IMG/VR virus record: IMGVR_UViG_3300045988_161096
Strand: one strand, 5' to 3'
DNA: 53,360 nucleotides
From: a virus
Within the stretch, counting starts at the first letter, position 1, and each line of letters starts with the position of its first letter. The notes beneath the pieces are model-generated. The model was not told the origin of the DNA, did no database searches, and saw only the letters and a list, made by a program, of their open reading frames with translations. Made by a program: the position numbers and the translations under genes. This document shows, piece after piece, positions 4,435 to 52,511 of this stretch.

Positions 4435-4737
4435 ATGCTTAAATTTAAATATATTATTGATAGTGGAAACTTTTCAAGTATAGAAGAGTTTCAAGCGCAT
4501 TTAAATAGAATGGGAGCTAAAGGCTATGAACTAGTTCAATGGCAGTTAGTTAATTTCGTAAATTGCTGCAGCACAATTCAGCCTACTAGTGATACACTAT
4601 CAACACTTATAACTTGGAAAATAGAGGACCATGATTCACGATGGCATAATAGATATAGCTACAGGCTTAAGTGCTTCTACAAAAAAGTGGAAGAACAAGA
4701 AAGTAAAGTGGAGCAAATTAATCGACAAACTTTCTAA
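4435..4737 (+). CDS. hypothetical protein (100 aa); the 3' 107 nt overlap the primase gene
   Basis: ATG-initiated ORF placed 4 nt after the polymerase stop. Only the first ~65 aa look protein-like. See the finding on the overlap. Confidence 0.35.
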   Translation: MLKFKYIIDSGNFSSIEEFQAHLNRMGAKGYELVQWQLVNFVNCCSTIQPTSDTLSTLITWKIEDHDSRWHNRYSYRLKCFYKKVEEQESKVEQINRQTF

Positions 4738-10063: not shown

Positions 10064-11254
10064 ATGGTAGAAGAAGTTATTCAGCCAGTAAAACGTGGTA
10101 GAGGTCGTCCACGTAAAAATCCAGGCGACCCAACTCAGTCTTATACTCGTAAAAATTCAGCCAACCCATTAGCTGATAATCATGAGTACTTTAAGCATTT
10201 GCCAGATAGAAATCTCAGTGTAAGCGAAGAGAACTTGCAGATGTTCTTCGAGACTATGTATGAGCGCCAGATGATTTGGAAACGCAGATTCATTGACAAG
10301 ATTCAGGCTCCATGGACAGATGACCCTATTTTCCAGGAAAATAAATTCCCTAATCTGTATCGTGAGCTCGACCGCAGTTCTTGGTGGCTTATCTCTAATA
10401 TCATTATGGATGATAGCCTATCACTTAAGAATAAAGTTTGGAAGTGTATCGTTTACAGATTGTTTAATTCTCCAGACTTTTTTGAGTTCTTAGCTTCTGT
10501 TACAGATTGGAAAGGTGGAATTCCTGACTACGAAAAGTTTAAGGAACAGCAGCCTAAGTTCATAACAATCGCCAAAACACTTCAGAATATGGGTGCTAAG
10601 CCATTTACCAATGCTTACATAATTAGTTCATCTTTTGCTGCCAAGACTGGTAAAAATAGAGCAGAAGCTTACGCTGATACTGCATTATCTGAATTGTGGG
10701 GTGCTATCGATATTATCATTGATACAGTTCTTATTGCAGAGTCAACGAGAGATATTATTGATGTTTTGTCAGCTATTCCTGGAGTTCAGAAGTTTATTGC
10801 TAATGAGCTGATGCAGGATATGATTTACATTAATCGATTCTCAAAAGAGGATTTTATTCCGTTTAATGTAAATGAACTGACAAATATTGGTCCTGGTTCA
10901 CTTCTTGGTTTGCGCATCTTGTTCCCTAACAGGGTTATCAACTCTCAGCGTGTAGCAGGTATGAAGGAACTTCTTGCTATGGCTGAAGAGAAACTCAATG
11001 AAGTTGCCGAAGTTCATGGAGAACCAATGGTATATGCTAAGTTTAATGCTGAAACTGGAGGCTATGAACCATCTAGCGAATTCAACCTTACAATTAATAA
11101 TATTGAAGGTTGGTTGTGCGAATATTCCAAGTATTGGAAGTTATCAATTGAAGTAGGCAAAAAGCAACGTAAGTTTAACCCAGTTTCAGAGGCTGATACA
11201 TACGATGGTACCAATGGTGCTAAGCCTGAAACTGAAACAGAAGATTTAATGTAA
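10064..11254 (+). CDS. AT-hook protein, candidate DNA base hypermodification enzyme (aGPT-Pplase-like; tentative)
   Basis: 396 aa. N-terminal AT-hook KRGRGRPRKNPG. The block YERQMIWKRRFIDKIQAPWTDDPIFQENKFPNLYRELDRSSWW resembles, from memory, proteins annotated as putative DNA base hypermodification protein. Neighbours are a methyltransferase, a dUTPase-like gene and a ThyA-like gene. Confidence 0.35.
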   Translation: MVEEVIQPVKRGRGRPRKNPGDPTQSYTRKNSANPLADNHEYFKHLPDRNLSVSEENLQMFFETMYERQMIWKRRFIDKIQAPWTDDPIFQENKFPNLYRELDRSSWWLISNIIMDDSLSLKNKVWKCIVYRLFNSPDFFEFLASVTDWKGGIPDYEKFKEQQPKFITIAKTLQNMGAKPFTNAYIISSSFAAKTGKNRAEAYADTALSELWGAIDIIIDTVLIAESTRDIIDVLSAIPGVQKFIANELMQDMIYINRFSKEDFIPFNVNELTNIGPGSLLGLRILFPNRVINSQRVAGMKELLAMAEEKLNEVAEVHGEPMVYAKFNAETGGYEPSSEFNLTINNIEGWLCEYSKYWKLSIEVGKKQRKFNPVSEADTYDGTNGAKPETETEDLM

Positions 11255-11256
11255 TT

Positions 11257-12090
11257 ATGGCAAAGAATTATAATACAACTGATTTATCTCCAGACCAAGC
11301 TATGGAGCGTCACATTTATCACAGAGACCAGTTTGCTCATTATTTGAGGTGGACACACATCTTGAAAGACGCTAAAATTGGTGATGATGTGGTAGATTTT
11401 GGATGTGGTCAAGCTAATTTGCTTGAAGTGTTTTACAGAAATAAGTTTAAGTGTAACAGCTATGTTGGCATCGATATTCGACACAAAACTATTGCAGATG
11501 ATGCAGCTAAGTTTGCATCAGTTCCTTGGGCTAGCTTCTATGAGGCTGACCTTGTTAAAAATTATCTTGATTACAGCCAGTTTAATGGCAATAAGGTGTG
11601 TGCTTTCGAGGTTCTTGAGCATGTCGGTAAACAGAATGCCGATGTTTTCCTGGAGAACTTTAAAGCGTGTGGACGTGATGATGCAACTTATTATCTTTCT
11701 ACTCCAAATTACGACCCTCGTGTTGGTGCTGCAGGTAATCATACTTATGATTCTGGGGACGGAAGAGGTGTAGATGTTCAAGAGTTTGACCACTACGAAC
11801 TTGAGGCTATTCTCAAAAAGCACTTTGATATTGTCGATAAGTTTGGAACATTTGCTTCACAGAAAGATTATAAGCCTCTCATGAATGATTGGCAGAAGCA
11901 AATGTTTAAAGAATTGAGTCGTTATTATGATTCAAATCTTATGGCAAATATCATGGCTCCAATGTTCCCAGATGCTGCTCGTAATACTCTGTGGATTTTG
12001 AAGCGTAAACCTGGCGATATTAAAGTTCCAAAGAATTCAAAGCCGGCTTCTATAGACCCAAATCCTGGTAATATAGACGATTTACTTTAA
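11257..12090 (+). CDS. class I SAM-dependent methyltransferase (small-molecule type, not a canonical DNA MTase)
   Basis: Motif I VVDFGCGQANLL, post-I YVGIDI, FEVLEHV. I saw no DPPY/NPPY or PCQ DNA-methyltransferase motifs. Confidence 0.75.
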   Translation: MAKNYNTTDLSPDQAMERHIYHRDQFAHYLRWTHILKDAKIGDDVVDFGCGQANLLEVFYRNKFKCNSYVGIDIRHKTIADDAAKFASVPWASFYEADLVKNYLDYSQFNGNKVCAFEVLEHVGKQNADVFLENFKACGRDDATYYLSTPNYDPRVGAAGNHTYDSGDGRGVDVQEFDHYELEAILKKHFDIVDKFGTFASQKDYKPLMNDWQKQMFKELSRYYDSNLMANIMAPMFPDAARNTLWILKRKPGDIKVPKNSKPASIDPNPGNIDDLL

Positions 12091-12097
12091 AAAGAAT

Positions 12098-12133
12098 AAC
12101 AGTAGTTAAAGCTTGTTAACTTTAACTACTGTT
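12098..12133 (+). terminator. 14-bp perfect hairpin (AACAGTAGTTAAAG / CTTTAACTACTGTT) after the methyltransferase gene; possible terminator or operator
   Basis: Perfect inverted repeat with an 8-nt loop. The 3' arm runs into the conserved TTAACATAAAAAAT promoter box. There is no immediate T-tract, so terminator function is uncertain. Confidence 0.4.
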
Positions 12134-12176
12134 AACATAAAAAATTTCACTATATGAAAATTTTTATGTAATTTTG
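12131..12176 (+). promoter_or_regulatory. promoter: upstream box GTTAACATAAAAAATTT plus -7 box TAATTTTG (12169-12176)
   Basis: Exact TAnnTTTG 46 nt upstream of ATG 12222. Same two-part layout as at 16708, 17730, 29938 and 52467. Confidence 0.6.
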
Positions 12177-12221
12177 CACATATAAATAATTTAGTTATTC
12201 ACATATTAAAATTTTACAATT

Positions 12222-12743
12222 ATGAATTCAGTAATGCAGATTGCAAAAGTAAGAAAGGTTAAAACTCCAGAGCGTGGTACATCTAAGTCAGCTGGTATTG
12301 ATTTCTTTGTGCCAGAGGATTTTTCAGGTCAGATGCTTCAGCCACACGAGGATGTGCTTATCCCATCTGGTATTTCAGCTCTTATTCCAGATGGATATAT
12401 GCTTATGGCTGCTAACAAGTCTGGCGTTTGTCCATCAAGAGAGGCTAAGCTTGATTGTGAGACAGAGATGAAAATCACAGGCCAAGATACAACTATTTCA
12501 AGTTGTGTTATTATTGGTGCATCTATCGTCGATGAGGACTATCCTGGTGAGATTCACATTCATCTCATTAATGTAGGCAAAGAGCCAGTGTGGATTGAGC
12601 GTGGTCAGAAGATTGCTCAGTTTATTTTGGTTCCTGTATCTTATGCAGATATTTGCGAAGCTTCTCCTGAAGTTGTTAAGGCTGCTGTTCTTGCTAAGAA
12701 GAGTGAACGAAAAGGAGGTTTTAACTCTACTTCAGAAGAGTAA
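12222..12743 (+). CDS. dut: dUTPase-family protein (trimeric dUTPase/dCTP-deaminase fold) with an insertion
   Basis: Motifs SAGIDFF, ANKSG, GASIVDEDYPGEIHIH, GQKIAQFI and C-terminal RKGGFNSTSE. There is a ~30-aa insert between motifs 2 and 3. Confidence 0.8.
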   Translation: MNSVMQIAKVRKVKTPERGTSKSAGIDFFVPEDFSGQMLQPHEDVLIPSGISALIPDGYMLMAANKSGVCPSREAKLDCETEMKITGQDTTISSCVIIGASIVDEDYPGEIHIHLINVGKEPVWIERGQKIAQFILVPVSYADICEASPEVVKAAVLAKKSERKGGFNSTSEE

Positions 12744-12874
12744 TAAATTGTCCCAGTAACATCCTCTATAGTCCCAGAGTTAACGAAATATATTTATAAT
12801 ATAAATTATTATATTATATGTTTCAATTGCTCTGGGATAAAAAGAGGAGTTCTATCTATTAAAAATATCAGATT

Positions 12875-13306
12875 ATGAAGAAAGTACCGGAAGTAGTAAA
12901 AGAACCTATATTCTTGAAATTCGTAGAGCATTATGCTAAAAAATTCAAAGAAAGCAACGGCTTTGGCATGTGGCTACACGAATATAAGGATATGGAAAAG
13001 AAAGGCTTATTTGCTCCAAAAATTCTGAGAACTTTCTATATTCAGATATGTACAGATAAGTTTAATTTAGGCTTTATTAGAGACGATGCAATTTGGTATA
13101 TATGTTCACAAGCCGTTGACGCAGCTAACACCTACATAGACGAAAGAGTTAATTCTATGTATAGGATTGTTCTTATAACTGGAGAGCAAGCTGAAGATGA
13201 AGATGGAGACCCATACACAGAATTAACTTATGAAGAAGCTAAAGAAATATGCCAAGCATTAAATGAAGAAGCCGAAGAAGAATTGTTTAAAATGCAAAAG
13301 ATATGA
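12875..13306 (+). CDS. hypothetical protein
   Basis: 143-aa ATG ORF with an acidic C-terminus. The stop overlaps the next ATG (ATGA). Confidence 0.55.
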   Translation: MKKVPEVVKEPIFLKFVEHYAKKFKESNGFGMWLHEYKDMEKKGLFAPKILRTFYIQICTDKFNLGFIRDDAIWYICSQAVDAANTYIDERVNSMYRIVLITGEQAEDEDGDPYTELTYEEAKEICQALNEEAEEELFKMQKI

Positions 13307-13533
13307 GCAAAGCTATAGATTTACGAAAATATACAAAACTGGTGCCAACTCCAGTAGCAGAAATTACTAAAGAACAGTTTTTTGCATACGAAAGAACTAG
13401 AATGGAAGGCAAAGTGAATATGCTTGATTTGAATGCAGTTTGTCCATTAACAGGCTTAAAGCCTGAAGACATTAAAGCTATTCAGCAAAACTTTCAAGTG
13501 TTAAATCAAAAATTCAATAAATCATGGAGGTAA
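13303..13533 (+). CDS. hypothetical protein
   Basis: 76-aa ORF coupled on both sides to its neighbours. Confidence 0.5.
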   Translation: MSKAIDLRKYTKLVPTPVAEITKEQFFAYERTRMEGKVNMLDLNAVCPLTGLKPEDIKAIQQNFQVLNQKFNKSWR

Positions 13534-14276
13534 ATTTTGAAATTTCTTATCCATATATTACCCAATCTGACAATAATTGGGTATATGAAAATGCAAATCA
13601 AGCATTTAATATTTTGGCTAATCGTATATTTAAACTTGGTGAAATGCCAGGTAATAATACAGTTAGACTTGAAAATGTTGGTTTTTATATTGCGCATCCA
13701 GAGCACAATCATATTACTGAAGATTGGCGCCAATGGAATGCTAAATATGCAGAAAGAGAGTGGAATTGGTACCTATCTCATTCGAGAGATGTATCAGAGC
13801 TTCAAAAGCATGCTCCTATTTGGAAACGCATGCACTGTGGCGATTGTCAAGTCAATTCTAATTATGGCTGGCTGTGGAACCGCAACAAACAGCTACAGAA
13901 AGTAATTGAGAAACTTGAGGACAATCCAGATACTCGTCAAGCATGGCTTACACTGTATGATGGTAAGGAAATGGATGACTATGAATATGATACTCCATGT
14001 ACACTGAATATTGGTTTTAAACTTGAATATATGAGTCAGAAAACTCTTAATATGACAGTTATGATGAGAAGTAATGACTTGATATTTGGTTTTTGCAATG
14101 ACCAGTACTGTTTTTCTCAGTTACAAAAGTATGTTGCTTCTAGAATTGGTGCGGCAGTTGGAACATATTATCATTTTGCTCAGGACTTGCATATATACTT
14201 ACCAAGCACAAAAGTATATCCAAAGCACATTAATGATTATTTAGTAGACAATTTTGTAGACTATTTGAAATTATGA
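13524..14276 (+). CDS. thymidylate-synthase-family pyrimidine methylase/hydroxymethylase (dUMP or dCMP; specificity not resolvable by eye)
   Basis: Catalytic Cys context DTPCTLNIGF. MMRSNDLIFGFCNDQ corresponds to the RS.D..LG.PFN block. SNYGWLWN corresponds to the GPVYG.QWR block. DLHIY is also present. It is strongly diverged from canonical ThyA, as phage hydroxymethylases are. Confidence 0.7.
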   Translation: MEVNFEISYPYITQSDNNWVYENANQAFNILANRIFKLGEMPGNNTVRLENVGFYIAHPEHNHITEDWRQWNAKYAEREWNWYLSHSRDVSELQKHAPIWKRMHCGDCQVNSNYGWLWNRNKQLQKVIEKLEDNPDTRQAWLTLYDGKEMDDYEYDTPCTLNIGFKLEYMSQKTLNMTVMMRSNDLIFGFCNDQYCFSQLQKYVASRIGAAVGTYYHFAQDLHIYLPSTKVYPKHINDYLVDNFVDYLKL

Positions 14277-14483: not shown

Positions 14484-15530
14484 ATGGACAGTAAAGATTT
14501 AAATGCGCTCATTGACCAAGCTCTATGTGATATACATAACACAGAGGCTCCTTCAAGTGAAGAAGCCTCTATGATGGAATATTCAGAAGAAGATTTTGCT
14601 AAAATGCTAGCAGATATTCAGTCTGAAGATGAAGACTTAGCAAAAGCTGAAATAGAAGCAGCTGCAAATCCAGATGACAACGAGAATTCTGATTTTTCTA
14701 TCGCTTCTATGGATGGCGATGAGTTTTATAACAAATCAACTCTAAAATATGAAGATGGCAAAGTTAAACGCGAAGTATCTGACGATGTTATCTTTTCTAT
14801 AGGCGGTGAAAACTGCGTGGAATTTGCCGACAGTCCTAAGCACGACAAAGAGTTAGTCCCTGAACTCAATGATGTTGAGCGCAGATTAGTGATTAGTCGT
14901 CGTATTAAAGATGGTATGGCAAAACGCCAGGCTAAAAAAGAACTTGAAAAAGTTGAAATTAATAGAATGGCGTTCGACCAGAAACTTCTCCCTTTATCAG
15001 AAGAGTTAACAAGATGGGACAAAACAGCTCTTGTAGAGGAACTTACCAGCAATTTGCGTCAACTTATTAAGCGCTACGACAAATATATCAATGCTAGAAT
15101 TGCTAGACTTTTATCTCCTGCTATTCCAAAAGCTATTAAGTTAGCAAAGATTAAATGGCCGTGGGTATTTGTTGCAAATCCTGGATTTCTATACAAGACA
15201 CATCCAGAAGTAGGTGAGGTTCTTACTTATTGGGTTACACCAAATGTGCCATATTATTTCAAGCAGGGTACAGAACAACAGATTCTTGAAGAGCGTGATT
15301 CCGAGCTTAGTACGTATTTTTTGGAATGCGTGGATAGAGCTATACATAGATGGTACGAGGCTAGACGCCGATTGGCTGATAGAGAAGTAATTTATGCTTC
15401 TAGGCTTGTTGGCGTTAACAATATCAGAACTTATGGCGACTTGTTAAGATACAATCCTTTTTGGTTCAAGAAACTTTATGACCGAATTAAAAAAGACAAT
15501 CCTTATGGGAAAGCAAAAGCACAGTCTTAA
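14484..15530 (+). CDS. hypothetical protein with acidic N-terminal region
   Basis: 348-aa ATG ORF. No motif recognised. Confidence 0.6.
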   Translation: MDSKDLNALIDQALCDIHNTEAPSSEEASMMEYSEEDFAKMLADIQSEDEDLAKAEIEAAANPDDNENSDFSIASMDGDEFYNKSTLKYEDGKVKREVSDDVIFSIGGENCVEFADSPKHDKELVPELNDVERRLVISRRIKDGMAKRQAKKELEKVEINRMAFDQKLLPLSEELTRWDKTALVEELTSNLRQLIKRYDKYINARIARLLSPAIPKAIKLAKIKWPWVFVANPGFLYKTHPEVGEVLTYWVTPNVPYYFKQGTEQQILEERDSELSTYFLECVDRAIHRWYEARRRLADREVIYASRLVGVNNIRTYGDLLRYNPFWFKKLYDRIKKDNPYGKAKAQS

Positions 15531-15985: not shown

Positions 15986-16403
15986 AATAATTCAACTCAC
16001 TGGCGATTCTTTCTATTATTTGAGAGATGGCGAAGAGCCTATTGACCCAGATAATCTTGAAGAAGCAGAAGAGTTTAAAACTCTGTTTGGTAATTTCAGA
16101 TTTATATCTGAACCAGAACCTATTGTGGGCACCGATATGGTAGAAGCTAAAATATCAGCAGCAGAACGAAAGAAAATAGCAGGTCAATTCATATTTGAGT
16201 TTATCATTCTTCCAAATAAAAAAGCTCATGTGCGAGTTTTTGATTTAAAAACCAATTATGAGGAAAGAAATCAAATTCAAGACTTGGAGCCAATTGGTGA
16301 CGCATATTGGGTTGAGTATAGATACCACAGTACTTCTCGTTGTAGAGATTTACTTCCAGTTTGTAAGATACACGAATATGAAAAATGGTTTGGCAAAAGT
16401 TAA
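15975..16403 (+). CDS. hypothetical protein
   Basis: The track ORF starts at GTG 15960; the in-frame ATG at 15975 (MKTEIIQLTG...) is preferred. This is the last gene of the early block and is followed by hairpin A. Confidence 0.55.
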   Translation: MKTEIIQLTGDSFYYLRDGEEPIDPDNLEEAEEFKTLFGNFRFISEPEPIVGTDMVEAKISAAERKKIAGQFIFEFIILPNKKAHVRVFDLKTNYEERNQIQDLEPIGDAYWVEYRYHSTSRCRDLLPVCKIHEYEKWFGKS

Positions 16404-16405
16404 TT

Positions 16406-16461
16406 TCCTATCTGGTGTTCTCTTGGGACTATTTCCGAGAAAATGCCAGATAGGATTTTTT
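16406..16461 (+). terminator. intrinsic terminator; copy A of the GTGTTCTCT hairpin family
   Basis: 10-bp stem TCCTATCTGG / CCAGATAGGA plus inner TTCTC / GAGAA, followed by T6. Begins 3 nt after the stop of the upstream gene. Confidence 0.75.
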
Positions 16462-17821: not shown

Positions 17822-18958
17822 ATGGCAACAATGAAATTCGCCCAGATGGCAACAAAGAAGTTACAGAAGTTAGTTAACGACCCAGCAACCTCTGATGAGG
17901 ACAAGGTAGCAATTCAGGCTATTCTTGATAAGCGACAGGCAGCTGCTCAGGCTCCAGCAGATAATGGAGCAGCACTTTCTCCAGAGGAGCAGGCAGCTAT
18001 CGATGCAGCAGAGAAGGAAGCCGCTAAGCAGAATTCTGAAGCTGGTGAGAACAAGGAAGCAAAGCCTAAGGCTAAGCGTGAGGCAAAGCCAAAGCAGAGC
18101 ATGGAGGAACTTGACGCTGAGGTTGCAAAGGCAAATGAGGAGGCTCTCGGTCATCGTTGTGAGACACTCATGCCTGGTACTGCTATTAAGGTTGGTGGTT
18201 ACGTTAAGGGAGTTCTTAAGGAGAAGCGAGCTATGCGCTGCTATCTTCTCATCCAGTCCGATGTTACAGATGAGAACCCTACAGGTCGCCAGTTCTACAA
18301 GGTGTTCAAAGAGGTTACAATCTTGCCGGAGACTGTAGAGCTTCACAAGGCTAAGAAGACAGGCGCTCGTCGTAAGGCTCAGGTTGATACTGAAGAGTGG
18401 ATGGCACAGGCCGATGAGATTGTAGAGGCTGCTGGTTCTTATGTAGGTCGCCAGATTGACCTTGGCGACGATACTAAGACAGATTCTCGAATTGAGACCA
18501 TTATCAAGGACAAGCGCTCTTGCACAGTGTTCTTCCGCATTGGCTTCAAGGATGAGAATGGTGCTCACAAGTTCACTCACAAGGCAATCCATTCAACCAA
18601 GGATGAGGCTGAAGGTGGTAAGGTAGTTATCACAGAGCCAGAGGGCTTGCTCCCATTGGATGATGCTGATGAGACTTACAAGGAGTTCCAGACCAAGTGG
18701 CAGACACGTGCTGAGCGTCAGCCAAGAACTGCTCTCACTCCTGAAGAGAAGGTTATCCGCGCAGAAGAGGCTCTTAACAAGGCAAAGAAAGCCTTGGAAA
18801 AAGCTAAGGAAGCACTTCAGAACAAGCAGCTCGAGTATGACAACGCTAAGGCTGCTCTCGATGCTAAGCATGATGAGCAGGAAGCCAATGCAGAAGCTGA
18901 GGCTAAAGAGGCAGTAGACGCTGCAGCTGCTGAAGCAGAGTCAGGTGACCTTATGTAA
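17822..18958 (+). CDS. Ala/Glu/Lys-rich protein of unknown function; monocistronic, probably abundant
   Basis: 378 aa with low-complexity A/E/K termini and a globular middle. It has its own promoter and a strong terminator. Codon choice is visibly GC-richer than in neighbouring genes. Confidence 0.7.
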   Translation: MATMKFAQMATKKLQKLVNDPATSDEDKVAIQAILDKRQAAAQAPADNGAALSPEEQAAIDAAEKEAAKQNSEAGENKEAKPKAKREAKPKQSMEELDAEVAKANEEALGHRCETLMPGTAIKVGGYVKGVLKEKRAMRCYLLIQSDVTDENPTGRQFYKVFKEVTILPETVELHKAKKTGARRKAQVDTEEWMAQADEIVEAAGSYVGRQIDLGDDTKTDSRIETIIKDKRSCTVFFRIGFKDENGAHKFTHKAIHSTKDEAEGGKVVITEPEGLLPLDDADETYKEFQTKWQTRAERQPRTALTPEEKVIRAEEALNKAKKALEKAKEALQNKQLEYDNAKAALDAKHDEQEANAEAEAKEAVDAAAAEAESGDLM

Positions 18959-19234: not shown

Positions 19235-19608
19235 ACAGTAACATATAGAAACGGCTCGCTGGTGGCAAATTTTAAAATTTTCAGATATTTATATATAAAT
19301 AATATATTAAATTATATAGAATATTTGATCCACACCGCATTATTTTTATTAATTAATATAATTATAAGGCTTAATATAAAATATTGAATTCTAGGTACCA
19401 GGAAATGGTTTTAGCTAGAAAGCTGACATCTGGATATAGAAACCGGCAAGTTAAGCCTACAAACTTTAACATTTCATTTAACTACTGTTAACATAAAAAA
19501 TTCTTGTGTGAACTGTGATAACTATCTTACCTGTCCATTGGCAGTTGACGGTTCTAAAGGTAGTTGGGTGTGTGATAGTTGGTGGAGAATGGTGTGATAA
19601 AACCTCAA

Positions 19609-19665
19609 TTCCTATCCAGTGTTCTCTCGCTGGCCATTTCTAAGATTTGGCCAGCGGGAATTTTT
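19609..19665 (+). repeat. copy B of the GTGTTCTCT hairpin family (terminator-like, but no upstream ORF)
   Basis: TTCCTATCCAGTGTTCTCTC, then the 8-bp stem GCTGGCCA / TGGCCAGC, then GGGAATTTTT. Confidence 0.7.
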
Positions 19666-21311: not shown

Positions 21312-21332
21312 TTTGGTAATTTAATATCTCAA

Positions 21333-21388
21333 TTCCTATCTGGTGTTCTCTCGGACCCATTTCCGCAGAATCACTGGGTAGGAATTTT
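21333..21388 (+). terminator. intrinsic terminator; copy C of the GTGTTCTCT hairpin family
   Basis: 13-bp stem TTCCTATCTGGTG / CACTGGGTAGGAA containing three G-U pairs, followed by T4. Lies 22 nt after the stop at 21311. Confidence 0.7.
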
Positions 21389-21574: not shown

Positions 21575-21626
21575 AAATCCAGTGTTCTCTCGGAGCCATT
21601 TCCTGGAAAATCACGGCTGGGAATTT
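21575..21626 (+). repeat. copy D of the GTGTTCTCT hairpin family
   Basis: AAATCCAGTGTTCTCTCGGAGCCATTTCCTGGAAAATCACGGCTGGGAATTT. No ORF lies upstream. Confidence 0.65.
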
Positions 21627-21687
21627 GCATGAAGCCTTGTAGAATTGCGGCTTTATACCTGATAAGTATCTGACCTATATTTATATA

Positions 21688-21733
21688 TTTTTAGACTAAA
21701 TAAAGTCAAAAAATTTTTTTATTTAAAATATTT
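21688..21733 (+). repeat. 46-bp perfect direct repeat, copy 1 (contains the promoter-type box AAAGTCAAAAAATTTTTTTATTT)
   Basis: TTTTTAGACTAAATAAAGTCAAAAAATTTTTTTATTTAAAATATTT is identical at 21915-21960. Confidence 0.9.
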
Positions 21734-21914
21734 CGCCCGAAGCTCATATTTGGCCTATATGGGCTTTAAATTATAAAATAATATATTTATATATAAAATA
21801 AAAAATAAGGCCTTATAGGCCCATTAAATGGCCTTAAAATCGATTTTTTAATATAATATATAAACTAGATTTTTATATATTATTTATAAAAATTTTTTAC
21901 TTTATTATTAATAA

Positions 21915-21960
21915 TTTTTAGACTAAATAAAGTCAAAAAATTTTTTTATTTAAAATATTT
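21915..21960 (+). repeat. 46-bp perfect direct repeat, copy 2
   Basis: Identical to 21688-21733. Confidence 0.9.
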
Positions 21961-22123
21961 TTATATATGCGTGTACTTATATATTTATATAAAAAATTTT
22001 TTATAATAATTTTTTACTTAGACTATAATTTATAATTAAAATAATATATCGATTTATTATTATTTTTGACTATATAATAATAAATTTTTTTATTTAAAAA
22101 TAAAATATTAATAAAAGTCAAAA

Positions 22124-22157
22124 AATTTTTTTATTTAAAATATTATTATTATCTTTG
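22124..22157 (+). promoter_or_regulatory. promoter: AAAGTCAAAAAATTTTTTT box plus -7 box TATCTTTG (22150-22157)
   Basis: About 130 bp here are paralogous to 19960-20090. The first ATG with the conserved leader is 232 nt downstream (22389). Confidence 0.5.
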
Positions 22158-22388
22158 CACTATAAATAATAAATATATAGCCTATATAATTATATTAGTT
22201 ATAATTAGATTTTTTTATATTATTTATTAATTATTTTTAGAGTTCTTTGACTTATTGGACAACGTTAGCAATAATTAAGGATTATTAGCAACGGTTAAAT
22301 AATATTAATTTTATAATATTTAATTATATTTTAATATTTTTAGTGTTAGTTAAAAAATTATAAAAACAATTAAATTATATTAAAAATT

Positions 22389-22730
22389 ATGAAAAAAATT
22401 AAAATTTCGCGTTCTTTCACTTTTAAGGCTTATAAAGTTGAAGTAGACCAAAAAATATTAAATGATTCTAAAAAATATTTAGAATTCATAAATAATATTA
22501 AAAGTGCAAATATTAGCAAACATTATGGTTCTTTCACTTTTAAAAGCGATTGTGAATATTATGTAGAAAAAAATATTTTAGATATTTTTAATAATATTTC
22601 ACAAGGTCCAAAAAATGCTAATTTTTATTTAATTTATAAAATTTCAACATTAGAGGACTCAAATATTAGTGATTCTTTGCTCATGTCAATTTATTATAAT
22701 ATTGACGAAGAAAAAATAATTTTAGATTAA
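22389..22730 (+). CDS. hypothetical Asn/Lys/Ile/Tyr-rich protein encoded in the AT-rich island
   Basis: 113-aa ATG ORF with the leader AACAATTAAAT. Followed by a palindromic hairpin. Confidence 0.5.
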   Translation: MKKIKISRSFTFKAYKVEVDQKILNDSKKYLEFINNIKSANISKHYGSFTFKSDCEYYVEKNILDIFNNISQGPKNANFYLIYKISTLEDSNISDSLLMSIYYNIDEEKIILD

Positions 22731-22740
22731 TTTAATAAAT

Positions 22741-22766
22741 ACTAGGCTATATTAATATAGCCTAGT
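22741..22766 (+). terminator. palindromic hairpin ACTAGGCTATAT-TA-ATATAGCCTAGT (possible terminator)
   Basis: 12-nt perfect arms, followed only by ATTT, so it would be a weak terminator. Confidence 0.4.
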
Positions 22767-22787
22767 ATTTCTAAAAATATATTAAAT

Positions 22788-23183
22788 ATGGACAATAAAG
22801 ACGAATTTTATTTAAAAATAGTGGTTTTTAGTCATTTTTTCGATTATTTAGCACTTGGGCTAAATTATACTAATGACTATAAATTTAGTGATTATTATAA
22901 ATTATTTGAACTTATTAATAAAGATGAAAATATTAAAAAGTTTAATAATATTATTAATAATTATGATTTATTAGATTTCGTTAACGATATTTATAATAAT
23001 AATATAAATATTAAATTATTTTATGATACGCAAAAATTATTAGTAAATATTAGCGATGGTGAAAAATATTATATTTTTGGCATAGATATTAGGCATAAAA
23101 TATTTAAAAATTATAAAAATATGCAACATTTTGTTAGCGAACTCGAAGATTATATAGATTTTACTTTTAATAATAAAAATTAG
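22788..23183 (+). CDS. hypothetical Asn/Lys/Ile/Tyr-rich protein encoded in the AT-rich island
   Basis: 131-aa ATG ORF. Its stop lies inside the following terminator stem. Confidence 0.5.
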   Translation: MDNKDEFYLKIVVFSHFFDYLALGLNYTNDYKFSDYYKLFELINKDENIKKFNNIINNYDLLDFVNDIYNNNINIKLFYDTQKLLVNISDGEKYYIFGIDIRHKIFKNYKNMQHFVSELEDYIDFTFNNKN

Positions 23184-23210
23184 GCTAATTATTATTAGCC
23201 TAATTTTTTT
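23180..23210 (+). terminator. intrinsic terminator
   Basis: 10-bp stem TTAGGCTAAT / ATTAGCCTAA with a TATT loop, followed by T7. Confidence 0.75.
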
Positions 23211-23972
23211 ATTTAATTATTTTAACGTTTGTTTATTTTAGTTTAATGGTTAAATAATTTAAAAATTTAATTAATTTTAAGCTAAAAATCGGTATTTTTT
23301 TGACACTTATTAGCATTTAATTGCTAAAAAATATTAAATTATTCTAATTTTAGCTAATAGGTTGTTAAATTATTCTAAATTATTCTAAATTTAATTAATT
23401 TTAGGCTAAAAAATTAATAGCCTATTAGGCTAAAAAATATTAATTTTAATAAAAATTAGGCCCCCTTAACAATTATTAGCCTGGCAGCCCCTTATTATTT
23501 AAAGACTTGTCCAAATGCTGAGCCAAAAATTTCTGCTGTACACATCTTATGACTTGTGAATAGGTTGATAGAGATATGCTTCATCAATTCATAAAATACT
23601 GACAAGGAGGGGCCCTTAGGCTCAATTCTATATTGCGCATTTTGTTCAGAAAAATTTTTGCGCAAAATAGGTTCGCTGGACGACACGCTATAGTAGTATA
23701 AATGTATATTGGTATGCGCCTACGCGCGTATATAGAGGGTTCAAAAATATTAAAAACATGCCCAGGGATGAAAGTAGTGTACCTCTGGGCCATTATAATA
23801 TAAAAATAATAAAGATATATAGTTTAATATATAAAAATGGTTCTGAGGCTCATTATTTTAATTCTTACTAGAAATATATAACAACTAATCACGGTTCCGC
23901 CTTTTGCGCTTACAAGTCTATATTATAAGTAGCGATTTTCACGGGATTTAAGACAATTACTACGGAATAATG

Positions 23973-24243
23973 GTTCACCAAAGTAAAAATCTTTTACGGT
24001 TCCTCATAACCTATTGAAAACCAATCACTTATATAAACGTTCCTGGAGGCCGGACCTTTTCTATAACCCTAAACCAATTTTTTAAAATTCACATTATATG
24101 TTTCTGGTAATACATTTTTAAAAAGTTCATTTTCCTTATATAGAGTATAGGGTAACTTGGGTAACTTTTTATATAAGTGTTTGATTTCCAATAATTTAGA
24201 AGTGCCCCGACCTCATTCACCTATAGTTCACCTATGGTTCACG
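23973..24243 (-). repeat. iteron/inverted-repeat module L1; inverted paralogue of 52069-52329
   Basis: On the - strand there are three 11-bp-spaced GTGAAY repeats (24215-24243), GGGTAAC x2, ~32-bp imperfect inverted arms (24008-24040 and 24165-24197) and a distal GGTGAAC (23973-23979). Its reverse complement aligns by eye along the full length of the 52-kb module. Confidence 0.8.
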
Positions 24244-24340
24244 GACTGCCATTTCATCAATATATTTTACAAAATATGTGATTTCCTCAGTAAAATTTAA
24301 CTGAAATGTAATAATTTTTTAATTTTTCAAGTAAAAAGCT

Positions 24341-24363
24341 TTAACACCTACGGTTTCAGTAAT
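24341..24363 (+). repeat. 23-nt perfect direct repeat TTAACACCTACGGTTTCAGTAAT, copy 1
   Basis: Identical at 24459-24481. Both copies are preceded by GTGATTT(C/TT)CTCAGTAAAA. Confidence 0.9.
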
Positions 24364-24458
24364 TAATTCTTTTCACACAAACATTACTAAGAACTGAAGC
24401 ATTAAATTACCACGTTTTTACAAAAGTGATTTTTCTCAGTAAAAATGAGTAAAAAGTT

Positions 24459-24481
24459 TTAACACCTACGGTTTCAGTAAT
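24459..24481 (+). repeat. 23-nt perfect direct repeat, copy 2
   Basis: Identical to 24341-24363. Confidence 0.9.
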
Positions 24482-24539
24482 CAAATGTTAAAAAATATTA
24501 AAATTTATATAAAAATTTCCTAGATTCAATAATTTTTAG

Positions 24540-24547
24540 TATATTTG
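24540..24547 (+). promoter_or_regulatory. -7 promoter box TATATTTG
   Basis: Exact TAnnTTTG 39 nt upstream of ATG 24586, the start of the packaging block. Confidence 0.55.
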
Positions 24548-26576: not shown

Positions 26577-29318
26577 ATGAACACTCCAAAAAGAACACTC
26601 TCCGAAATGCAGCAGAGAGTTATAAATGCAGATACTCTTAAGCATGATATGGTAAATGCTAAAGACTTATTGCGTCTTGAGATGCTTTCATCATTCAAGG
26701 CTTATACTAAAGCTATGTTTAAAGCTCAGTATAACCGAAACTTTATTGTAGCTGAGCATCATGAAGCTATATTCAAGGCTTTACAGGACGTAGTTGATGG
26801 TAAGTGCAGAAGACTTATCATCAATATGCCTCCTAGATATGGCAAATGCTGTGCTATTGGCACACAGATAACACTCGCCGATGGAACTAGAAAGTCTATA
26901 GAAAGTATAAAACCTGGAGAATACGTCTTATCATTTCACAATGGAAAAGCTGTAAGGAATAAAGTTATTGCAACTGAACCGGCTTTCAAAAATAGTAGCA
27001 TGATTACAATGAAGTCAGGCAGAAAAGTTATATGTAGCTTAGACCACCCATGGTTAACTCCTTTTGGTTATAAGAAAACACAAGAACTTAAAGCTGGTGA
27101 GAGAATTTATGCCTTGAAATCTGATATAGAGCAGCCCGACTGTTTGTCTGATTCAGAGGTTATACTTATTTCAGCCATGTTATTTGATGGCTGTTGTACC
27201 AAGCCAGGTAAGTTGGGATTTACAAATGTAGATAACTTGGCAGTAGACGCAGTTTCTAGAGCTGTGTATAATCTTGGAGGCATTATGAAAAAAGGAGCAA
27301 CAACAGACTGTCAATATTATATATTAGGGGGTAAAAATGGCGTAATAAATAATGTATTAACTGAATATGGCTTAGTAGGTCATAGCTCATATAACAAAAG
27401 AATTCCAGATAAAATCTTTAAGACTTCTAGCCGACAAAAGTATTTATTTTTAGGAATGATGATAGCTACCGATGGAACGATTAAACAAAGTGGTCAAATT
27501 TCCATAGGCTTAGCTAACGAGGGCCTAGCTAATGATATTCAGTATTTACTGTCAACTATAGGTATTCCAGCCACTTTAAACTGGTACCCTAATGCTAAAG
27601 CGGGAATATGGAATGTAGCTATATCCAGAAGATATGCTCAGAGAATGTTCAATAGACTTGATTTTTATGGAAAGGCTAATACTGCGGCTGAATATATTTT
27701 AAAGCCTTCTAAGATAGAACGCACGTGTACATATCCATATAGTATAATTCAGAAAGAAGGTCTCTATAAAAAGGTGCATATTGATTTAGGCTATAAATCT
27801 GTTGGTCCTGGCAGAAATATGTCTGAAGACACATTTAAAGAACTAGTTGATTTGCTACCTGATAAGTTGGGAAAATACTGGGCTTACGACTTTTATCCAG
27901 ATGAGATAAAAGATGTAGTTTCAGTAGGAGCACAAGAACTTATACATCTTGAAGTCGAGAATGACCACAATTTCATAGCAAACGGATTGGTTTCACATAA
28001 TACGGAATTGGCAATTAAATCATTTATTAGCTGGTGCATGGCCCTCAACCCACGCTGTAGATTCTTGCACCTATCATATTCCGACGTGCTTGTAGCAGAT
28101 AACTCAGACACTGTAAGGTCTATCATGCAAGAAAGTCTATATAAAGAGCTGTTTCCGCAATCTAAGCTTGAAAAAGAGAAAGCTTCTAATAAACGTTGGC
28201 GAACAGCTGCAGGCGGAGAGATGTATGCGGTTTCAACACAAGGTCAGGTAACCGGTTTTGGTGCTGGTAATGTGGATGAAGAGGAACCAATCAAAGGTTC
28301 TGAAACTGCCGACAACCTTACATTCGATGAAGATATGAATGGAATGCTTGAGCAGATAGGTGCTAAGACTAATGTGTTCCAAGGTGCAATCATGATTGAC
28401 GACCCTATTAAGCCTGAGGATGCTGATTCAGATATAGTTCGTGAGCGAATTAATTTGCGATTCGAAAATACAATTCGTAACCGTACTAATAGCCGCAACA
28501 CTCCTATTATCATAATCATGCAGAGACTACATGAGCACGACTTGTGTGGATATTTGCAGGAGATAGAGCCAGATGAGTGGACAGTTCTATCGTTGCCGGC
28601 TATACAGGAAGACCCTATTACTCATGAACGCCATGCCCTGTGGCCTATGAAGCATACACTCGAAGAGCTTGACCACATGCGAGAGATTAACCCACTCGTA
28701 TTCGATACTCAGTACATGCAGGACCCTACACCAAAAGAAGGTCTTATGTATTCTGAAGGTTTTAAGACTTATAACAAAGACCAATTACCACAAGGCCGAG
28801 AAGCTGCTCACAAGTGGAACTACACAGATACAGCTGATACAGGAGCTGATAATCTGTGCTCCATCTGTTTTATAGATACACCTGAGTATGTATATGTTAC
28901 AGATGTGTTGTTCACAGATGCGCCAATGGAGAAAACAGAGCCAAAGACAGCAGAGATGTTAACACGAAATCAGACCGTATCAGCTCTTATAGAATCGAAT
29001 AACGGTGGTAGAGGCTTTTCTAGAAATGTTAAAAAGATACTTCGTGTAACGCATAGAAACTTTAGAACTGCTGTTAGAACGTTTACTCAGTCTGAGAAAA
29101 AAGCAACACGTATATTTACTAATTCTGGAATGTGCCAAAGCGATATTCTGTTCCCAGAAGGCTGGGAAAAGAAGTGGCCTAAGTTCTATGCGGCTCTTAT
29201 GTCGTATCGTAAAGATAATAAGAAACAGCAGCACGATGATGCACCAGATGCTCTTACAGGCATAATTGAGATGCATAGTAGAAAATATAATACTAATAGA
29301 ATAAGACTGAGAAATTAA
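26577..29318 (+). CDS. terL: terminase large subunit, interrupted by an intein (extein about 528 aa)
   Basis: The Walker A motif PPRYGK|TELAIK is restored after removing residues 91-475. Walker B is AIMIDDPIKPED, followed by IIIMQRLHEHDL. The nuclease half has YTDTADTGADNLC, ALIESNNGG and HDDAPDAL. Confidence 0.9.
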   Translation: MNTPKRTLSEMQQRVINADTLKHDMVNAKDLLRLEMLSSFKAYTKAMFKAQYNRNFIVAEHHEAIFKALQDVVDGKCRRLIINMPPRYGKCCAIGTQITLADGTRKSIESIKPGEYVLSFHNGKAVRNKVIATEPAFKNSSMITMKSGRKVICSLDHPWLTPFGYKKTQELKAGERIYALKSDIEQPDCLSDSEVILISAMLFDGCCTKPGKLGFTNVDNLAVDAVSRAVYNLGGIMKKGATTDCQYYILGGKNGVINNVLTEYGLVGHSSYNKRIPDKIFKTSSRQKYLFLGMMIATDGTIKQSGQISIGLANEGLANDIQYLLSTIGIPATLNWYPNAKAGIWNVAISRRYAQRMFNRLDFYGKANTAAEYILKPSKIERTCTYPYSIIQKEGLYKKVHIDLGYKSVGPGRNMSEDTFKELVDLLPDKLGKYWAYDFYPDEIKDVVSVGAQELIHLEVENDHNFIANGLVSHNTELAIKSFISWCMALNPRCRFLHLSYSDVLVADNSDTVRSIMQESLYKELFPQSKLEKEKASNKRWRTAAGGEMYAVSTQGQVTGFGAGNVDEEEPIKGSETADNLTFDEDMNGMLEQIGAKTNVFQGAIMIDDPIKPEDADSDIVRERINLRFENTIRNRTNSRNTPIIIIMQRLHEHDLCGYLQEIEPDEWTVLSLPAIQEDPITHERHALWPMKHTLEELDHMREINPLVFDTQYMQDPTPKEGLMYSEGFKTYNKDQLPQGREAAHKWNYTDTADTGADNLCSICFIDTPEYVYVTDVLFTDAPMEKTEPKTAEMLTRNQTVSALIESNNGGRGFSRNVKKILRVTHRNFRTAVRTFTQSEKKATRIFTNSGMCQSDILFPEGWEKKWPKFYAALMSYRKDNKKQQHDDAPDALTGIIEMHSRKYNTNRIRLRN
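26847..28001 (+). mobile_element. 385-aa intein with a LAGLIDADG homing-endonuclease domain, inserted in the TerL P-loop
   Basis: Starts with Cys (CCAIGTQITLADG). Block B is CSLDHPWLT. Two LAGLIDADG motifs: LISAMLFDGCC and LFLGMMIATDGT. Ends ...HNFIANGLVSHN, followed by the +1 Thr. Confidence 0.9.
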
Positions 29319-29324
29319 AATATT

Positions 29325-29924
29325 ATGGGTAGAGGAAATTTTAAGAAAAAGTTGATAGCTGGAGTTGGTATCAACGATTGTGATGAACCTGTGCACGATG
29401 AGAATGGTAAGTTAAATAAGGCTTACACTGTTTAGAAGAGTATGATTCACAGGTGCTATAGTGATAATTACCATACGAGAAATCCAGCTTATAAAGGATG
29501 TACAGTGTGTGAAGATTGGCGCAGATTATCAAATTTTAAAGCGTGGTTCTATGATAATTATGTTGATGGCTATCAGCTTGATAAAGATGTATTAGTAGAA
29601 GGTAATACTGTGTATTCACCTGAAACATGCTGCTTTATTCCAGGCGAAATAAACAAGTTGTTTGAATCTAAGAAGAAAACAGCTGAGCTTCCTATAGGTA
29701 TACAGTTAGATACTTACAGAAATAAATACATGGTTGCTGTCGGTATAAATGGCAAATTAAAGCACATAGGAAGATTTGACACTTTAAAAGAAGCTATAAT
29801 AGCAAGAAATAAGGCTAAATACGAAAGTATTAAAGAACTTATTGATAGGTATAAAAGCAGTGGAAATCTCCCAGATAAAGTTTACAATGCTATACTCAGA
29901 AAGATAAAGATTTATAAATTTTGA
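29325..29924 (+). pseudogene. AP2-domain homing-endonuclease-like gene interrupted by an in-frame TAG (29433-29435); the 3' ORF 29442-29924 may still be expressed
   Basis: Same frame on both sides: MGRGNFKKKLIAGVGINDCDEPVHDENGKLNKAYTV*KSMIHRCYSDNYHTRNPAYKGCTVCEDW... The TAG sits where related proteins, as I recall them, have Trp (TGG). AP2-like block: IGIQLDTYRNKYMVAVGINGKLKHIGRFDTLKEAIIARNKA. Confidence 0.55.
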
Positions 29925-30357: not shown

Positions 30358-30426
30358 CTAACGCATAGCTTTTGCACTCACTGCTTAGCTTTGCATATTT
30401 ATTAACTAATTAATGTTTAGACTATT

Positions 30427-31074
30427 ATGGGATTGAATTGCGGATGTCCAGCAGGTAAGCATCTCAATGACCTTGAGATTGCTGAGTGCAAAGAGAGCTT
30501 TGGACAGATTCAGAAAGTAATTTTTGCCCGTATCTTCAGCCTTACAGGTGTTAAGAACAAGATTCCTAAGGAAACGATTGCTAAGAAAGCTACGATGACA
30601 CCTCTTTTTGCTGCAGGAGACGGTACTAAGTTGATTGTATCACCATACATTCAGAACCCAACTACTGAACCTGGCGAAGCTCGTACGTTTGGTGGCGGTA
30701 ACCAGACACTTGGTGGTATTGAGATTGTTATTGGCCGTGAGCCAACTACATTCACAGGCGTTATTTATCAGGAAGCTCAGTCAGTTATTAAGACACTCAA
30801 GACTTATTCATGTGAAAAGATTGGCGTGTTCTTGATTGACGAGAATGGTAATATTGGAGCTATCGACGAGGCCGGCAATGGTGCAAACTATGAGCCTATT
30901 CCAGTTGATAAGTTCTTCGTAGGTGACAAGAACCTTGGCGGTTATGAGGAGCCAGACTCTAACACTATTAGTTGGAGCTTCTATCCTAATTGGTCAGACA
31001 ATCTCGTCTTGATTAAGGCTGATACACTTGACTACAATCCACTTACAGAGCTCACAAACGCGGCTTCAACTTAA
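30427..31074 (+). CDS. hypothetical protein; first ORF of the late block
   Basis: 215-aa ATG ORF. No motif recognised. Confidence 0.6.
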   Translation: MGLNCGCPAGKHLNDLEIAECKESFGQIQKVIFARIFSLTGVKNKIPKETIAKKATMTPLFAAGDGTKLIVSPYIQNPTTEPGEARTFGGGNQTLGGIEIVIGREPTTFTGVIYQEAQSVIKTLKTYSCEKIGVFLIDENGNIGAIDEAGNGANYEPIPVDKFFVGDKNLGGYEEPDSNTISWSFYPNWSDNLVLIKADTLDYNPLTELTNAAST

Positions 31075-42962: not shown

Positions 42963-43083
42963 CCCAGTACTTCACTCTATAATCTCTGGGACTTTAAATT
43001 ATATTGAATTATAAATTATAAGGATATATAAATTTTAAAGTTCTAGAGATTAAAATTTAAAGTTTATCTAGATTTATAGCTTT

Positions 43084-52045: not shown

Positions 52046-52068
52046 AAATATTTAACAAGGTAACAATT

Positions 52069-52329
52069 CGTGAACTATTCGTGAACGTTATAGGGTAACA
52101 CCTAACCTATTGAAAGTCAATCACTTATATAAAAAGTTACCCAAGTTACCCTATAATCTATATAGTCCAAATGATATTTTTTAAAAACATATACTATAGC
52201 CGTAGTATATGTTTTTTAAAAAATATCCCTATAAGTTATAGAAAAGGTCCGTGCTCCGGACACTTTTTATATAAGTAATTGATTTTCAATAGGTTATATG
52301 GTTCCGTAAATATTTTTTATTTGGTGAAC
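52069..52329 (+). repeat. iteron/inverted-repeat module L2
   Basis: CGTGAAC at 52069 and 52080 (11-bp spacing), and GGTGAAC at 52323. GGGTAAC at 52093 opposes GTTACCC at 52136 and 52145. 34-nt inverted arms at 52104-52137 and 52262-52295 (2 mismatches). Nested ~22-bp-arm palindrome at 52174-52226. GC hairpin GTCCG-TGCTC-CGGAC. Confidence 0.85.
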
Positions 52330-52466
52330 TTCGCCCATCTGATAAATTTATAAGATTTATGTAATATAGAATTGTGTTACGCGTACGTGCGTATATACGC
52401 ATACATTATATAAGATTTATAAGTTCAAGTGTTAACAGTAGTTAAAAAATTTTTTGTTAACTTCTT

Positions 52467-52511
52467 TTAACACAAAAAATTTTTTTATATGAAGAATTTT
52501 TGTTACTTTTG
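52467..52511 (+). promoter_or_regulatory. promoter: TTAACACAAAAAATTTTTTT box plus -7 box TACTTTTG (52504-52511)
   Basis: Exact TAnnTTTG 39 nt upstream of ATG 52550. Confidence 0.65.

Follow-up and report, generated by a model that had tools for sequence, protein, structure and literature searches.

Paired repeat modules at the two transcription-block borders of a Bacteroidota siphovirus genome: candidate replication origins

Two described replication systems come close to the arrangement considered here. Rep proteins, such as those of the Staphylococcus aureus pathogenicity islands (SaPIs), are initiator-helicases whose C-terminal winged helix reads iterons of 5-6 nt in opposing orientations on the two sides of an AT-rich centre (PMC9371898). 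In phage SPP1, whose genes all lie on one strand, the two origins, oriL and oriR, are alike in having repeats and an AT-rich unwinding element and bind the same initiator, and oriR is intergenic and adjoins moron genes (PMC6316719, PMC3485210). The initiator bound at oriR has been proposed to stall replication forks and to bring about the switch from theta to sigma replication, with phage recombination proteins restarting replication (PMC3485210). The IMG/VR virus record IMGVR_UViG_3300045988_161096, a stretch of 53,360 nucleotides (the window), contains two copies of an intergenic module, near 24 kb and 52 kb, in which short phased repeats, inverted arms and an AT-rich centre are combined. 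We hold with moderate confidence that these modules are cis-acting replication elements of the origin type.

With the SaPI origins the window shares a homologous helicase core, opposing short repeats and an AT-rich centre within a site of ~300 bp, and a variable helicase C-terminus. In contrast to the single SaPI origin immediately 3' of rep, there are two copies at distances of 5.6 and 17 kb from the helicase gene; in addition, the hexamers flank an arm, and ATTGA-N3-TCAAT arms, a GC hairpin and an ACGCG box are extra. Like SPP1, the window represents a lytic siphovirus whose genes all lie on one strand; both have two distant sites built alike from repeats and AT-rich DNA, and in both the second site is intergenic between transcription signals and near moron genes (in the window an island of ~20% GC adjoins the 24-kb copy). 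The window also shares with SPP1 an exonuclease, an annealing or single-stranded-DNA-binding (SSB) protein and a junction nuclease, the counterpart of the last being a sub-threshold VRR-NUC match. However, SPP1 uses gp38, the loader gp39 and the DnaB-type gp40, whereas the window encodes a fused primase-helicase, and no gp38-type origin-binding protein, separate loader or DnaB-type helicase was found among its annotated open reading frames (ORFs). SPP1 oriL is located inside the initiator gene and the SPP1 origins are ~13 kb of 44 kb apart, whereas both modules of the window are intergenic and near-antipodal. The pair, conserved in a Bacteroidota siphovirus family, would be a variant of two known kinds, SaPI-type iteron origins and SPP1-type dual origins. 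To our knowledge, the origins of phages of Bacteroides and other Bacteroidota are essentially unmapped, and in the annotation of the closest cultivated relatives, BF486P2 and BF503P1, almost all proteins are hypothetical.

The module pair and its conservation

The genome is circular, as the first and last 53 nt of the window are identical, and this terminal overlap leaves a circle of 53,307 bp. All sizeable ORFs are on the plus strand and form two blocks:

52.5 kb across the junction to ~21 kb, plus strand: early block, including a DUF2800 nuclease, a Gp2.5/Enc34-type SSB and PolA
24.6-52.0 kb, plus strand: late block, encoding terminase (with an intein), portal, scaffold, capsid, tape measure, fibres and amidase

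Both modules are intergenic. They fill the two large gaps that separate the transcription blocks, there being no others, and each lies upstream of a promoter: the 52-kb copy of the first early one (-7 box 52504-52511) and the 24-kb copy of the first late one (-7 box 24540-24547). An earlier note on this DNA had reported an inverted copy of the 52-kb module at 24 kb, alignable over its full length, about 28.1 kb away and thus roughly opposite on a circle of ~53.3 kb. This was borne out. The reverse complement of 23973-24243 aligns over its full length with 52062-52329 in MAFFT, BLAST finds 76.3% identity over 270 nt (E 5e-48), and in a comparison of the window with its own reverse complement the pair is the only inverted self-match of such length. 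Round the circle, 28,086 and 25,221 bp separate the centres of the two modules (fraction 0.527). An alignment of 16 module copies, followed by more distant copies, refined the anatomy as follows:

52059-52329, plus strand: 52-kb module, at the late-to-early border
52059-52099, plus strand: its hexamer array GGTAAC, GTGAAC, GTGAAC, GGTAAC (starts 52059, 52070, 52081 and 52094; spacing 11, 11 and 13 bp)
52091-52137: left inverted arm, with palindrome ATTGAAAGTCAAT at 52109-52121
52134-52151, plus strand: AAGTTACCCAAGTTACCC, two 9-mers opposing the hexamer sense
52152-52246: AT-rich centre (80% AT, genome 64%) with the palindrome CTATAATCTATATAG and a TACTA..TAGTA hairpin; candidate unwinding element
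52247-52261: GC hairpin GTCCGTGCTCCGGAC between A and T runs, a bidirectional terminator-like site
52262-52308: right inverted arm, with ATTGATTTTCAAT at 52278-52290
52379-52405, plus strand: ACGCG box ACGCGTACGTGCGTATATACGCATAC, on the early-gene side of the 52-kb copy
23973-24243, minus strand: 24-kb module, at the early-to-late border; conserved in position and orientation in relatives
24202-24242, minus strand: its hexamer array GTGAAC, GTGAAC, GTGAAT, GGGCAC (spacing 11, 11 and 13 bp)
24168-24198: second inverted arm, with a degenerate palindrome
24150-24167, minus strand: AAGTTACCCAAGTTACCC of the 24-kb copy
24058-24149: AT-rich centre (79% AT)
24007-24037: inverted arm, with ATTGAAAACCAAT at 24013-24025
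23712-23736, minus strand: ACGCG box near the 24-kb copy, reading TATACGCGCGTAGGCGCATAC on the minus strand; conserved in L046 and L047

Read from the hexamer side, a module consists of about four hexamers, an arm with ATTGR-N3-YCAAT, two opposing GTTACCC 9-mers, a CTATA..TATAG palindrome, the 80% AT centre, the GC hairpin, the second arm, AACCGTAAA and one more hexamer. The outer repeats had been described as three GTGAAY iterons spaced by 11 bp; the phasing stands, but the simple triplet gives way to a degenerate family G-K-K-M-A-C with about four phased copies (GGTAAC, GTGAAC, GTGAAT, GGGCAC) spaced by 11, 11 and 13 bp. In the distant relatives L047 and L221 the hexamer positions read GGTAAC, GGTAAC and GGGCAC, and GGTAAC is the reverse complement of GTTACC. 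Inspection of the sequence located the two GTTACCC, the inverted arms and the distal GGTGAAC in both copies, as the note had it; the arms are 85% complementary at 52 kb and 84% at 24 kb. The GC hairpin, also ascribed to both copies, is terminator-like at 52 kb, but its counterpart at 24 kb is degenerate, and the variants of relatives retain a GC palindrome. The TACTA..TAGTA hairpin is carried by the AT centre of most copies. An ACGCG-type box is found on the distal-hexamer side of both, at 24 kb only after an extra ~190 nt, within which lie an invariant AT-rich 26-mer and the hairpin 23761-23791.

This combination of repeats, arms and AT centre occurs at the two module sites only, which supports the origin reading. 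The string GTTACCCnnGTTACCC is present in the window solely at 24150-24165 (minus strand) and 52136-52151 (plus strand), with 0.05 occurrences expected, and GTGAAC pairs phased by 11 bp are confined to the modules except for one match elsewhere with 1 mismatch (0.07 expected). Two further candidate features were discarded: the ACGCG box is not a general companion of repeats adjacent to VapE-type genes (5 of 22 loci, 4.1 expected), and a fit of the arms to the E. coli consensus for integration host factor (IHF) is unsupported; a forward-strand scan of the window for this consensus gave 2 sites, both outside the modules (3.6 expected).

Many human-gut assemblies contain relatives of the window, and about 25 of these relatives retain both copies at the same late-to-early and early-to-late borders. 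The 24-kb copy sits at the same place and on the minus strand in all relatives whose sequence covers the region, two distant ones included (L030/L034, L042, L033/L043, L046, L047, L130). The 52-kb copy was recovered at 13 of 14 loci anchored on the first early gene, at all 15 anchored on the last late gene and on further metagenome contigs, and the contigs 133502, ERZ1034701 NODE-42 and 3300001528_000413 carry both copies each.

The pair extends to phages with diverged repeats. The Bacteroides fragilis phages BF486P2 and BF503P1 have a homologous module in the two border gaps (in BF486P2 6772-6857 corresponds to 30384-30471), in direct orientation and without GTTACCC; the ATTGA-N3-TCAAT arms (general form ATTGR-N3-YCAAT) and the central palindrome are shared with the window. 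The Croceibacter phage P2559Y has a direct module of 200 bp in both gaps (23615-23813 and 43001-43199) with the repeat TAAACAAY, 17 of whose 26 genomic sites fall within 2.4% of the genome, and the box TACGCGTA occurs once per module and nowhere else in that genome. The Elizabethkingia phage TCUEAP1 has two palindromic modules at the corresponding borders, each with two TGAGACA, ~100 bp of AT-rich DNA and two TGTCTCA, and thus clean examples of at least two opposing repeats on either side of an AT-rich region. Near-antipodal spacing, proposed for the window, is kept at 0.44-0.53 of the circle in five lineages. The inverted orientation, which the note took as part of a mirrored layout, is on the sequences compared specific to the clade of the window; the copies of BF486P2, BF503P1 and P2559Y are direct. 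In one distant genome, identity between the outer halves of the two copies reaches 90.8%, whereas with the window orthologue it is 70%, which indicates that the two copies exchange sequence or co-evolve.

A candidate initiator and the case for origins

The probable initiator acting on the modules is encoded in the early block:

4631-7123, plus strand: 830-aa VapE/Rep-type primase-helicase (PF05272 VapE-like domain, 2e-84; phrog_256 over the full length)

Residues 366-724 match the SaPI1 Rep1-DNA complex (PDB 7PDS, E 1.8e-80), and no other initiator candidate was found when 56 major ORFs were screened against Pfam and/or PHROGs. The C-terminal domain diverges fastest (28-48% identity, against 50-67% elsewhere in the protein), as expected if it co-evolves with the lineage-specific repeats. 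A single-sequence AlphaFold model of this domain is poor (pLDDT 49).

A link between such helicases and repeat clusters is provided by the temperate Firmicutes phage phiFL4A of Enterococcus. Its gp26 is a full-length homologue (43% identity across 96% of the length) whose C-terminal domain belongs to the same family, and the gap directly 3' of its gene (14716-15049, 333 bp) contains 12 GGATAC/GTATCC hexamers in both orientations, a TATATA-rich stretch and a CGCG box, TTCGCGTGCGCGAG. This is the densest repeat cluster in the phiFL4A genome, and no description of it was found in the literature searched. The cluster occupies the position of a SaPI-type origin and has the same ingredients as the window modules; it is a single copy adjoining the helicase gene, in contrast to the window pair. 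In the satellite phage P4, the C-terminal domain of the alpha primase-helicase reportedly binds short repeats at ori and crr, which are said to lie 4.5 kb apart, crr itself being no origin. The P4 octamer is TGTTCACC, the reverse complement of GGTGAACA; the likeness of the latter to GGTGAAC of the window may be coincidence. Nothing usable was found in the literature on BF486P2 or on P4 crr.

The earlier note had left open whether the two copies are a duplicated origin or terminus, or a regulatory switch. A duplicated origin is best supported, by the iteron and AT-rich layout, the Rep1-type helicase, the phiFL4A cluster and the occurrence of the pair throughout the family; terminus and switch may be secondary or rival roles. 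In such an origin, the primase-helicase would bind the module repeats via its fast-evolving C-terminal domain, melt the AT-rich centre and load itself there, after which PolA, the Gp2.5-type SSB and the nucleases encoded nearby would take over. Either both modules would fire, or one would fire while the initiator at the other stalls the fork, as proposed for SPP1 oriL and oriR, and the stalled fork would trigger a switch to recombination-dependent concatemer synthesis. Binding, melting and firing, as well as the choice of the true recognition repeat, are what we infer from the sequence.

Several observations weigh against this interpretation. In contrast to SaPIs and phiFL4A, neither module adjoins the helicase gene: one is 5.6 kb upstream and the other 17 kb downstream. 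The position directly 3' of that gene holds no such site; its stop codon is followed after 5 nt by the next gene. The hexamers and the two GTTACCC oppose each other across the left arm and not across the AT centre, with one hexamer beyond the right arm; the inverted arms, unlike the hexamers, do flank the 80% AT centre. The modules lie 175-300 bp upstream of the first early and first late promoters, a position that by itself would suit a transcriptional role just as well. With all genes on one strand, GC skew gives no information. Finally, helicases adjacent to AAGTTACCC arrays in other genomes have a common C-terminal domain family, to which that of the window helicase shows no detectable relation (hhalign probability 0.8-0.9%), and the domain of these array-associated helicases was found in no other window ORF.

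The arrays concerned came to light with the exact 18-mer AAGTTACCCAAGTTACCC of the window, which retrieved 133 unrelated loci, 30 of them with a VapE-type helicase gene. In 29 of these 30 the end of the helicase gene is 2-310 bp from the 18-mer repeats, and the helicases belong to many lineages with 22-35% mutual identity; this is independent evidence in favour of the origin reading. At L002, L005, L010 and ~25 further loci, members of a widespread family of VapE-type helicases of ~700 aa with the common C-terminal motif ..LG.AL..LGY.R.K.NGVYGY.. are followed directly 3' by arrays of the 9-mers AAGTTACCC/GGGTAACTT that flank an AT-rich stretch. These arrays are probably SaPI-like origins in diverse uncultivated phages or satellites.

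Other explanations for the pair

The main rival is a transcriptional switch, in which the modules are operator or enhancer platforms for a phage regulator, e.g. the conserved first early product (52550-52975), and time the early and late blocks. We consider this rather unlikely; both roles could coexist. The copies sit just upstream of the first early and first late promoters in the window and likewise in BF486P2 and P2559Y, ATTGA-N3-TCAAT resembles the site of a dimer and recurs three times in tandem upstream of the late promoter in contig L057, and the GC hairpin is terminator-like. On the other hand, the phiFL4A cluster is within a replication operon directly after the helicase gene and not at a block border, a flip of the module relative to the promoter is tolerated (the window clade compared with BF486P2 and P2559Y), five other promoters of the same early family (D2) have no module, and the first early protein has no Pfam or PHROG match.

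A more elaborate version of the origin reading would couple the two sites. One module would fire while forks would be halted at the other, bound by the same helicase, which would thereby become a hotspot of recombination and turn replication over to the synthesis of concatemers; in the clade with inverted copies, crossing-over at this barrier would occasionally flip the late block, and the resulting isomers would be a by-product or, as in the 2-micron plasmid, an amplification device of origin duplication. The AAGTTACCC repeat might, moreover, mediate cross-talk between the window phage and elements in the same cell that have helicases for this repeat. We regard this full scheme as improbable, and it draws on one contig, IMG/VR 3300045988_101614 (ENA ORPF01000756; L009/L057/L096), in which the late block is reversed and joined to a mosaic module with a 52-type flank, a 24-type arm, the shared core and a 52-type right half.

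The same contig, together with the sequence exchange between copies noted above, speaks for recombination as the proper function of the inverted copies, which would then be substrates for flipping the 28-kb late block in the manner of the 2-micron/FLP flip-flop or a Gin/Hin-like switch. In addition, a homologue of the plus-strand gene at 17822-18958 is on the minus strand in BF486P2, and SPP1invmir is a precedent for a viable large inversion (PMC6316719). However, the copies are direct in three related phages (BF486P2, BF503P1 and P2559Y), where crossing-over would split the genome, and the Pfam and PHROGs screens of the window ORFs gave no match to an integrase, invertase or transposase. For these reasons a dedicated flip-flop is unlikely, and we give it still less credence than the coupled scheme. 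The flip is seen in only 1 of ~25 relatives, and a search of 15 loci yielded no reciprocal junction. The junction of ORPF01000756 holds a unique repeat, (TTTTATTGAAACTCAATAT)x3.5, and a remnant of the 3' end of the last late gene, which places the breakpoint outside the module; the flipped late block is unconfirmed. The 24-kb border is an inversion hotspot, because BF486P2 has nine adjoining minus-strand genes, one of which is the homologue of 17822-18958.

A packaging signal (pac or cos) or terminal-repeat boundary is highly improbable: the large terminase gene begins 2.3 kb downstream of the 24-kb copy, and the ends of many terminal-repeat phages fall where the 52-kb copy is, but two oppositely oriented copies half a genome apart would mean two packaging starts, and the phiFL4A equivalent is beside the helicase gene and not the terminase. 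Least credible is a non-autonomous mobile element resembling a miniature inverted-repeat transposable element that inserted twice, for despite arms of 31-47 nt that look like terminal inverted repeats around a ~125-bp core, the copies are at the same syntenic positions in all relatives including distant ones, their homology continues past the arms and takes in the hexamers, the distal hexamer and the ACGCG box, no transposase is encoded, and among 169 loci fetched with the core there was, beyond relatives of the window, one weak, partial module-like match (L003), the remainder being helicase-adjacent arrays or bare chance matches.

Surroundings of the modules and implications

Beside the 24-kb copy, the earlier note had predicted a minus-strand transcription unit that mirrors the order of elements at 52 kb. 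The region comprises the following features:

23742-23819, minus strand: conserved non-coding block with invariant columns, distant relatives included
23794-23819: AT-rich 26-mer, an invariant part of this block
23761-23791: hairpin, part of the block
23742-23749, minus strand: TAnnTTTG box CAAAAATA
23495-23686, minus strand: 63-aa ORF starting with GTG, no conserved gene
21660-23490: AT-rich island (~20% GC, genome 36%) adjoining the 24-kb module
22389-22730 and 22788-23183, plus strand: island ORFs without family match, bracketed by hairpin terminators and repeated promoter-like elements

The hairpin, the CAAAAATA box, the TACGCGCGTATATAG box and the 63-aa ORF are all present in the sequence. 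The order is not mirrored, however: at 52 kb the module is followed by the ACGCG box, a promoter and a gene, whereas the minus strand at 24 kb has the module, hairpin, TAnnTTTG, ACGCG box and ORF. The promoter-like repeat families of the genome terminate in TAnnTTTGCA, in the style of Bacteroidota. TAnnTTTG as such occurs 75 times genome-wide, with 69 expected, and this chance-level frequency rules out the box as evidence for a promoter. Nor is the ORF supported as an overlooked gene, since in the closest relative it has a frameshift or lacks the start codon, two others have insertions and in-frame stops, and in distant relatives it is absent with a different ORF in its place. It has no Pfam or PHROG match, and a comparison with the nine real minus-strand genes at the equivalent place in BF486P2, of which it might have been a remnant, was negative. 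A structured minus-strand RNA is likewise poorly supported, with z-scores of about -2 on both strands, an unfavourable covariation term and no strand-specific signal. What is conserved at this flank, as DNA, is the -7 box (positionally), the hairpin and the ACGCG box, and a terminator-like hairpin is found on the minus strand at 23418-23432. A short minus-strand transcript near the 24-kb copy is therefore possible, while a conserved minus-strand protein gene is not supported.

The AT-rich island looks like a zone of moron insertion. Its 113-aa ORF is kept in the distant relatives L046 and L047, and many contigs of relatives break within the island. No DNA match to cultivated phages was found for 22.5-25.5 kb; the closest cultivated phages have Bacteroides fragilis as host. 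Rfam returned the two tRNAs already known at gathering thresholds, and with relaxed thresholds the region 15.9-24.7 kb gave one weak match to a microRNA family (22 bits against a threshold of 180, E 0.25). Upstream of the late promoter, the 24-kb module is followed by two 42-nt direct repeats (AGTAAAAAGCTTTAACACCTACGGTTTCAGTAAT..) at 24330-24371 and 24448-24489, which may be activator sites and are replaced by ATTGAAACTCAAT repeats in contig L057. In BF486P2 (L048) the gap of 1.66 kb contains, at 29600-29900 and 30580-30760, many TGCCA-N3-TGGCA/TGTCA-N3-TGGCA palindromes and TTTTGNCA repeats, which form a second dense array upstream of the late promoter that resembles protein-binding sites and is distinct from the module.

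Elsewhere, the early block also encodes an SNF2 helicase, and its VRR-NUC match is weak (22.4 bits, below the Pfam cutoff of 23.8). Thymidine-hypermodification enzymes are encoded at 10064-14276 and include a methyltransferase, a 5-hmdU DNA kinase domain and proteins that resemble thymidylate synthase and a dUTPase/dCTP deaminase; modification of the phage DNA is probable. An element of ~100 nt with an invariant GTGTTCTCTCG core is present in four copies (16394-16436, 19598-19640, 21322-21364 and 21577-21603), mostly at the ends of gene clusters and with locally complementary flanks; it has no Rfam match and no convincing consensus fold. At the circular junction a tandem repeat, (CAGCTCCAG)n (1-80 and 53272-53360), is apparently coding and lies upstream of the DUF2800 nuclease ORF; its length differs among relatives, and the contigs of several of them end there. 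In the late block, the large terminase gene is interrupted:

26577-29318: large terminase gene containing an intein with a LAGLIDADG homing-endonuclease domain (Pfam Intein_splicing, LAGLIDADG_3)

Several relatives, among them L009/L057 and L033/L043, lack ~26847-28013, and the intein is thus polymorphic in the population.

If the modules are indeed origins, a conserved architecture of two near-antipodal origins would characterise a group of siphoviruses that is widespread in the gut and the sea. The border next to the 24-kb copy is also a hotspot of block inversion and moron insertion, which helps to explain the plasticity of genomes in this family. Together with the candidate binding protein, the modules offer concrete targets for experiments and for the engineering of Bacteroides phage vectors. 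Moreover, the pair would provide a second, unrelated system for the idea, put forward for SPP1, that a second origin times the switch in replication mode.

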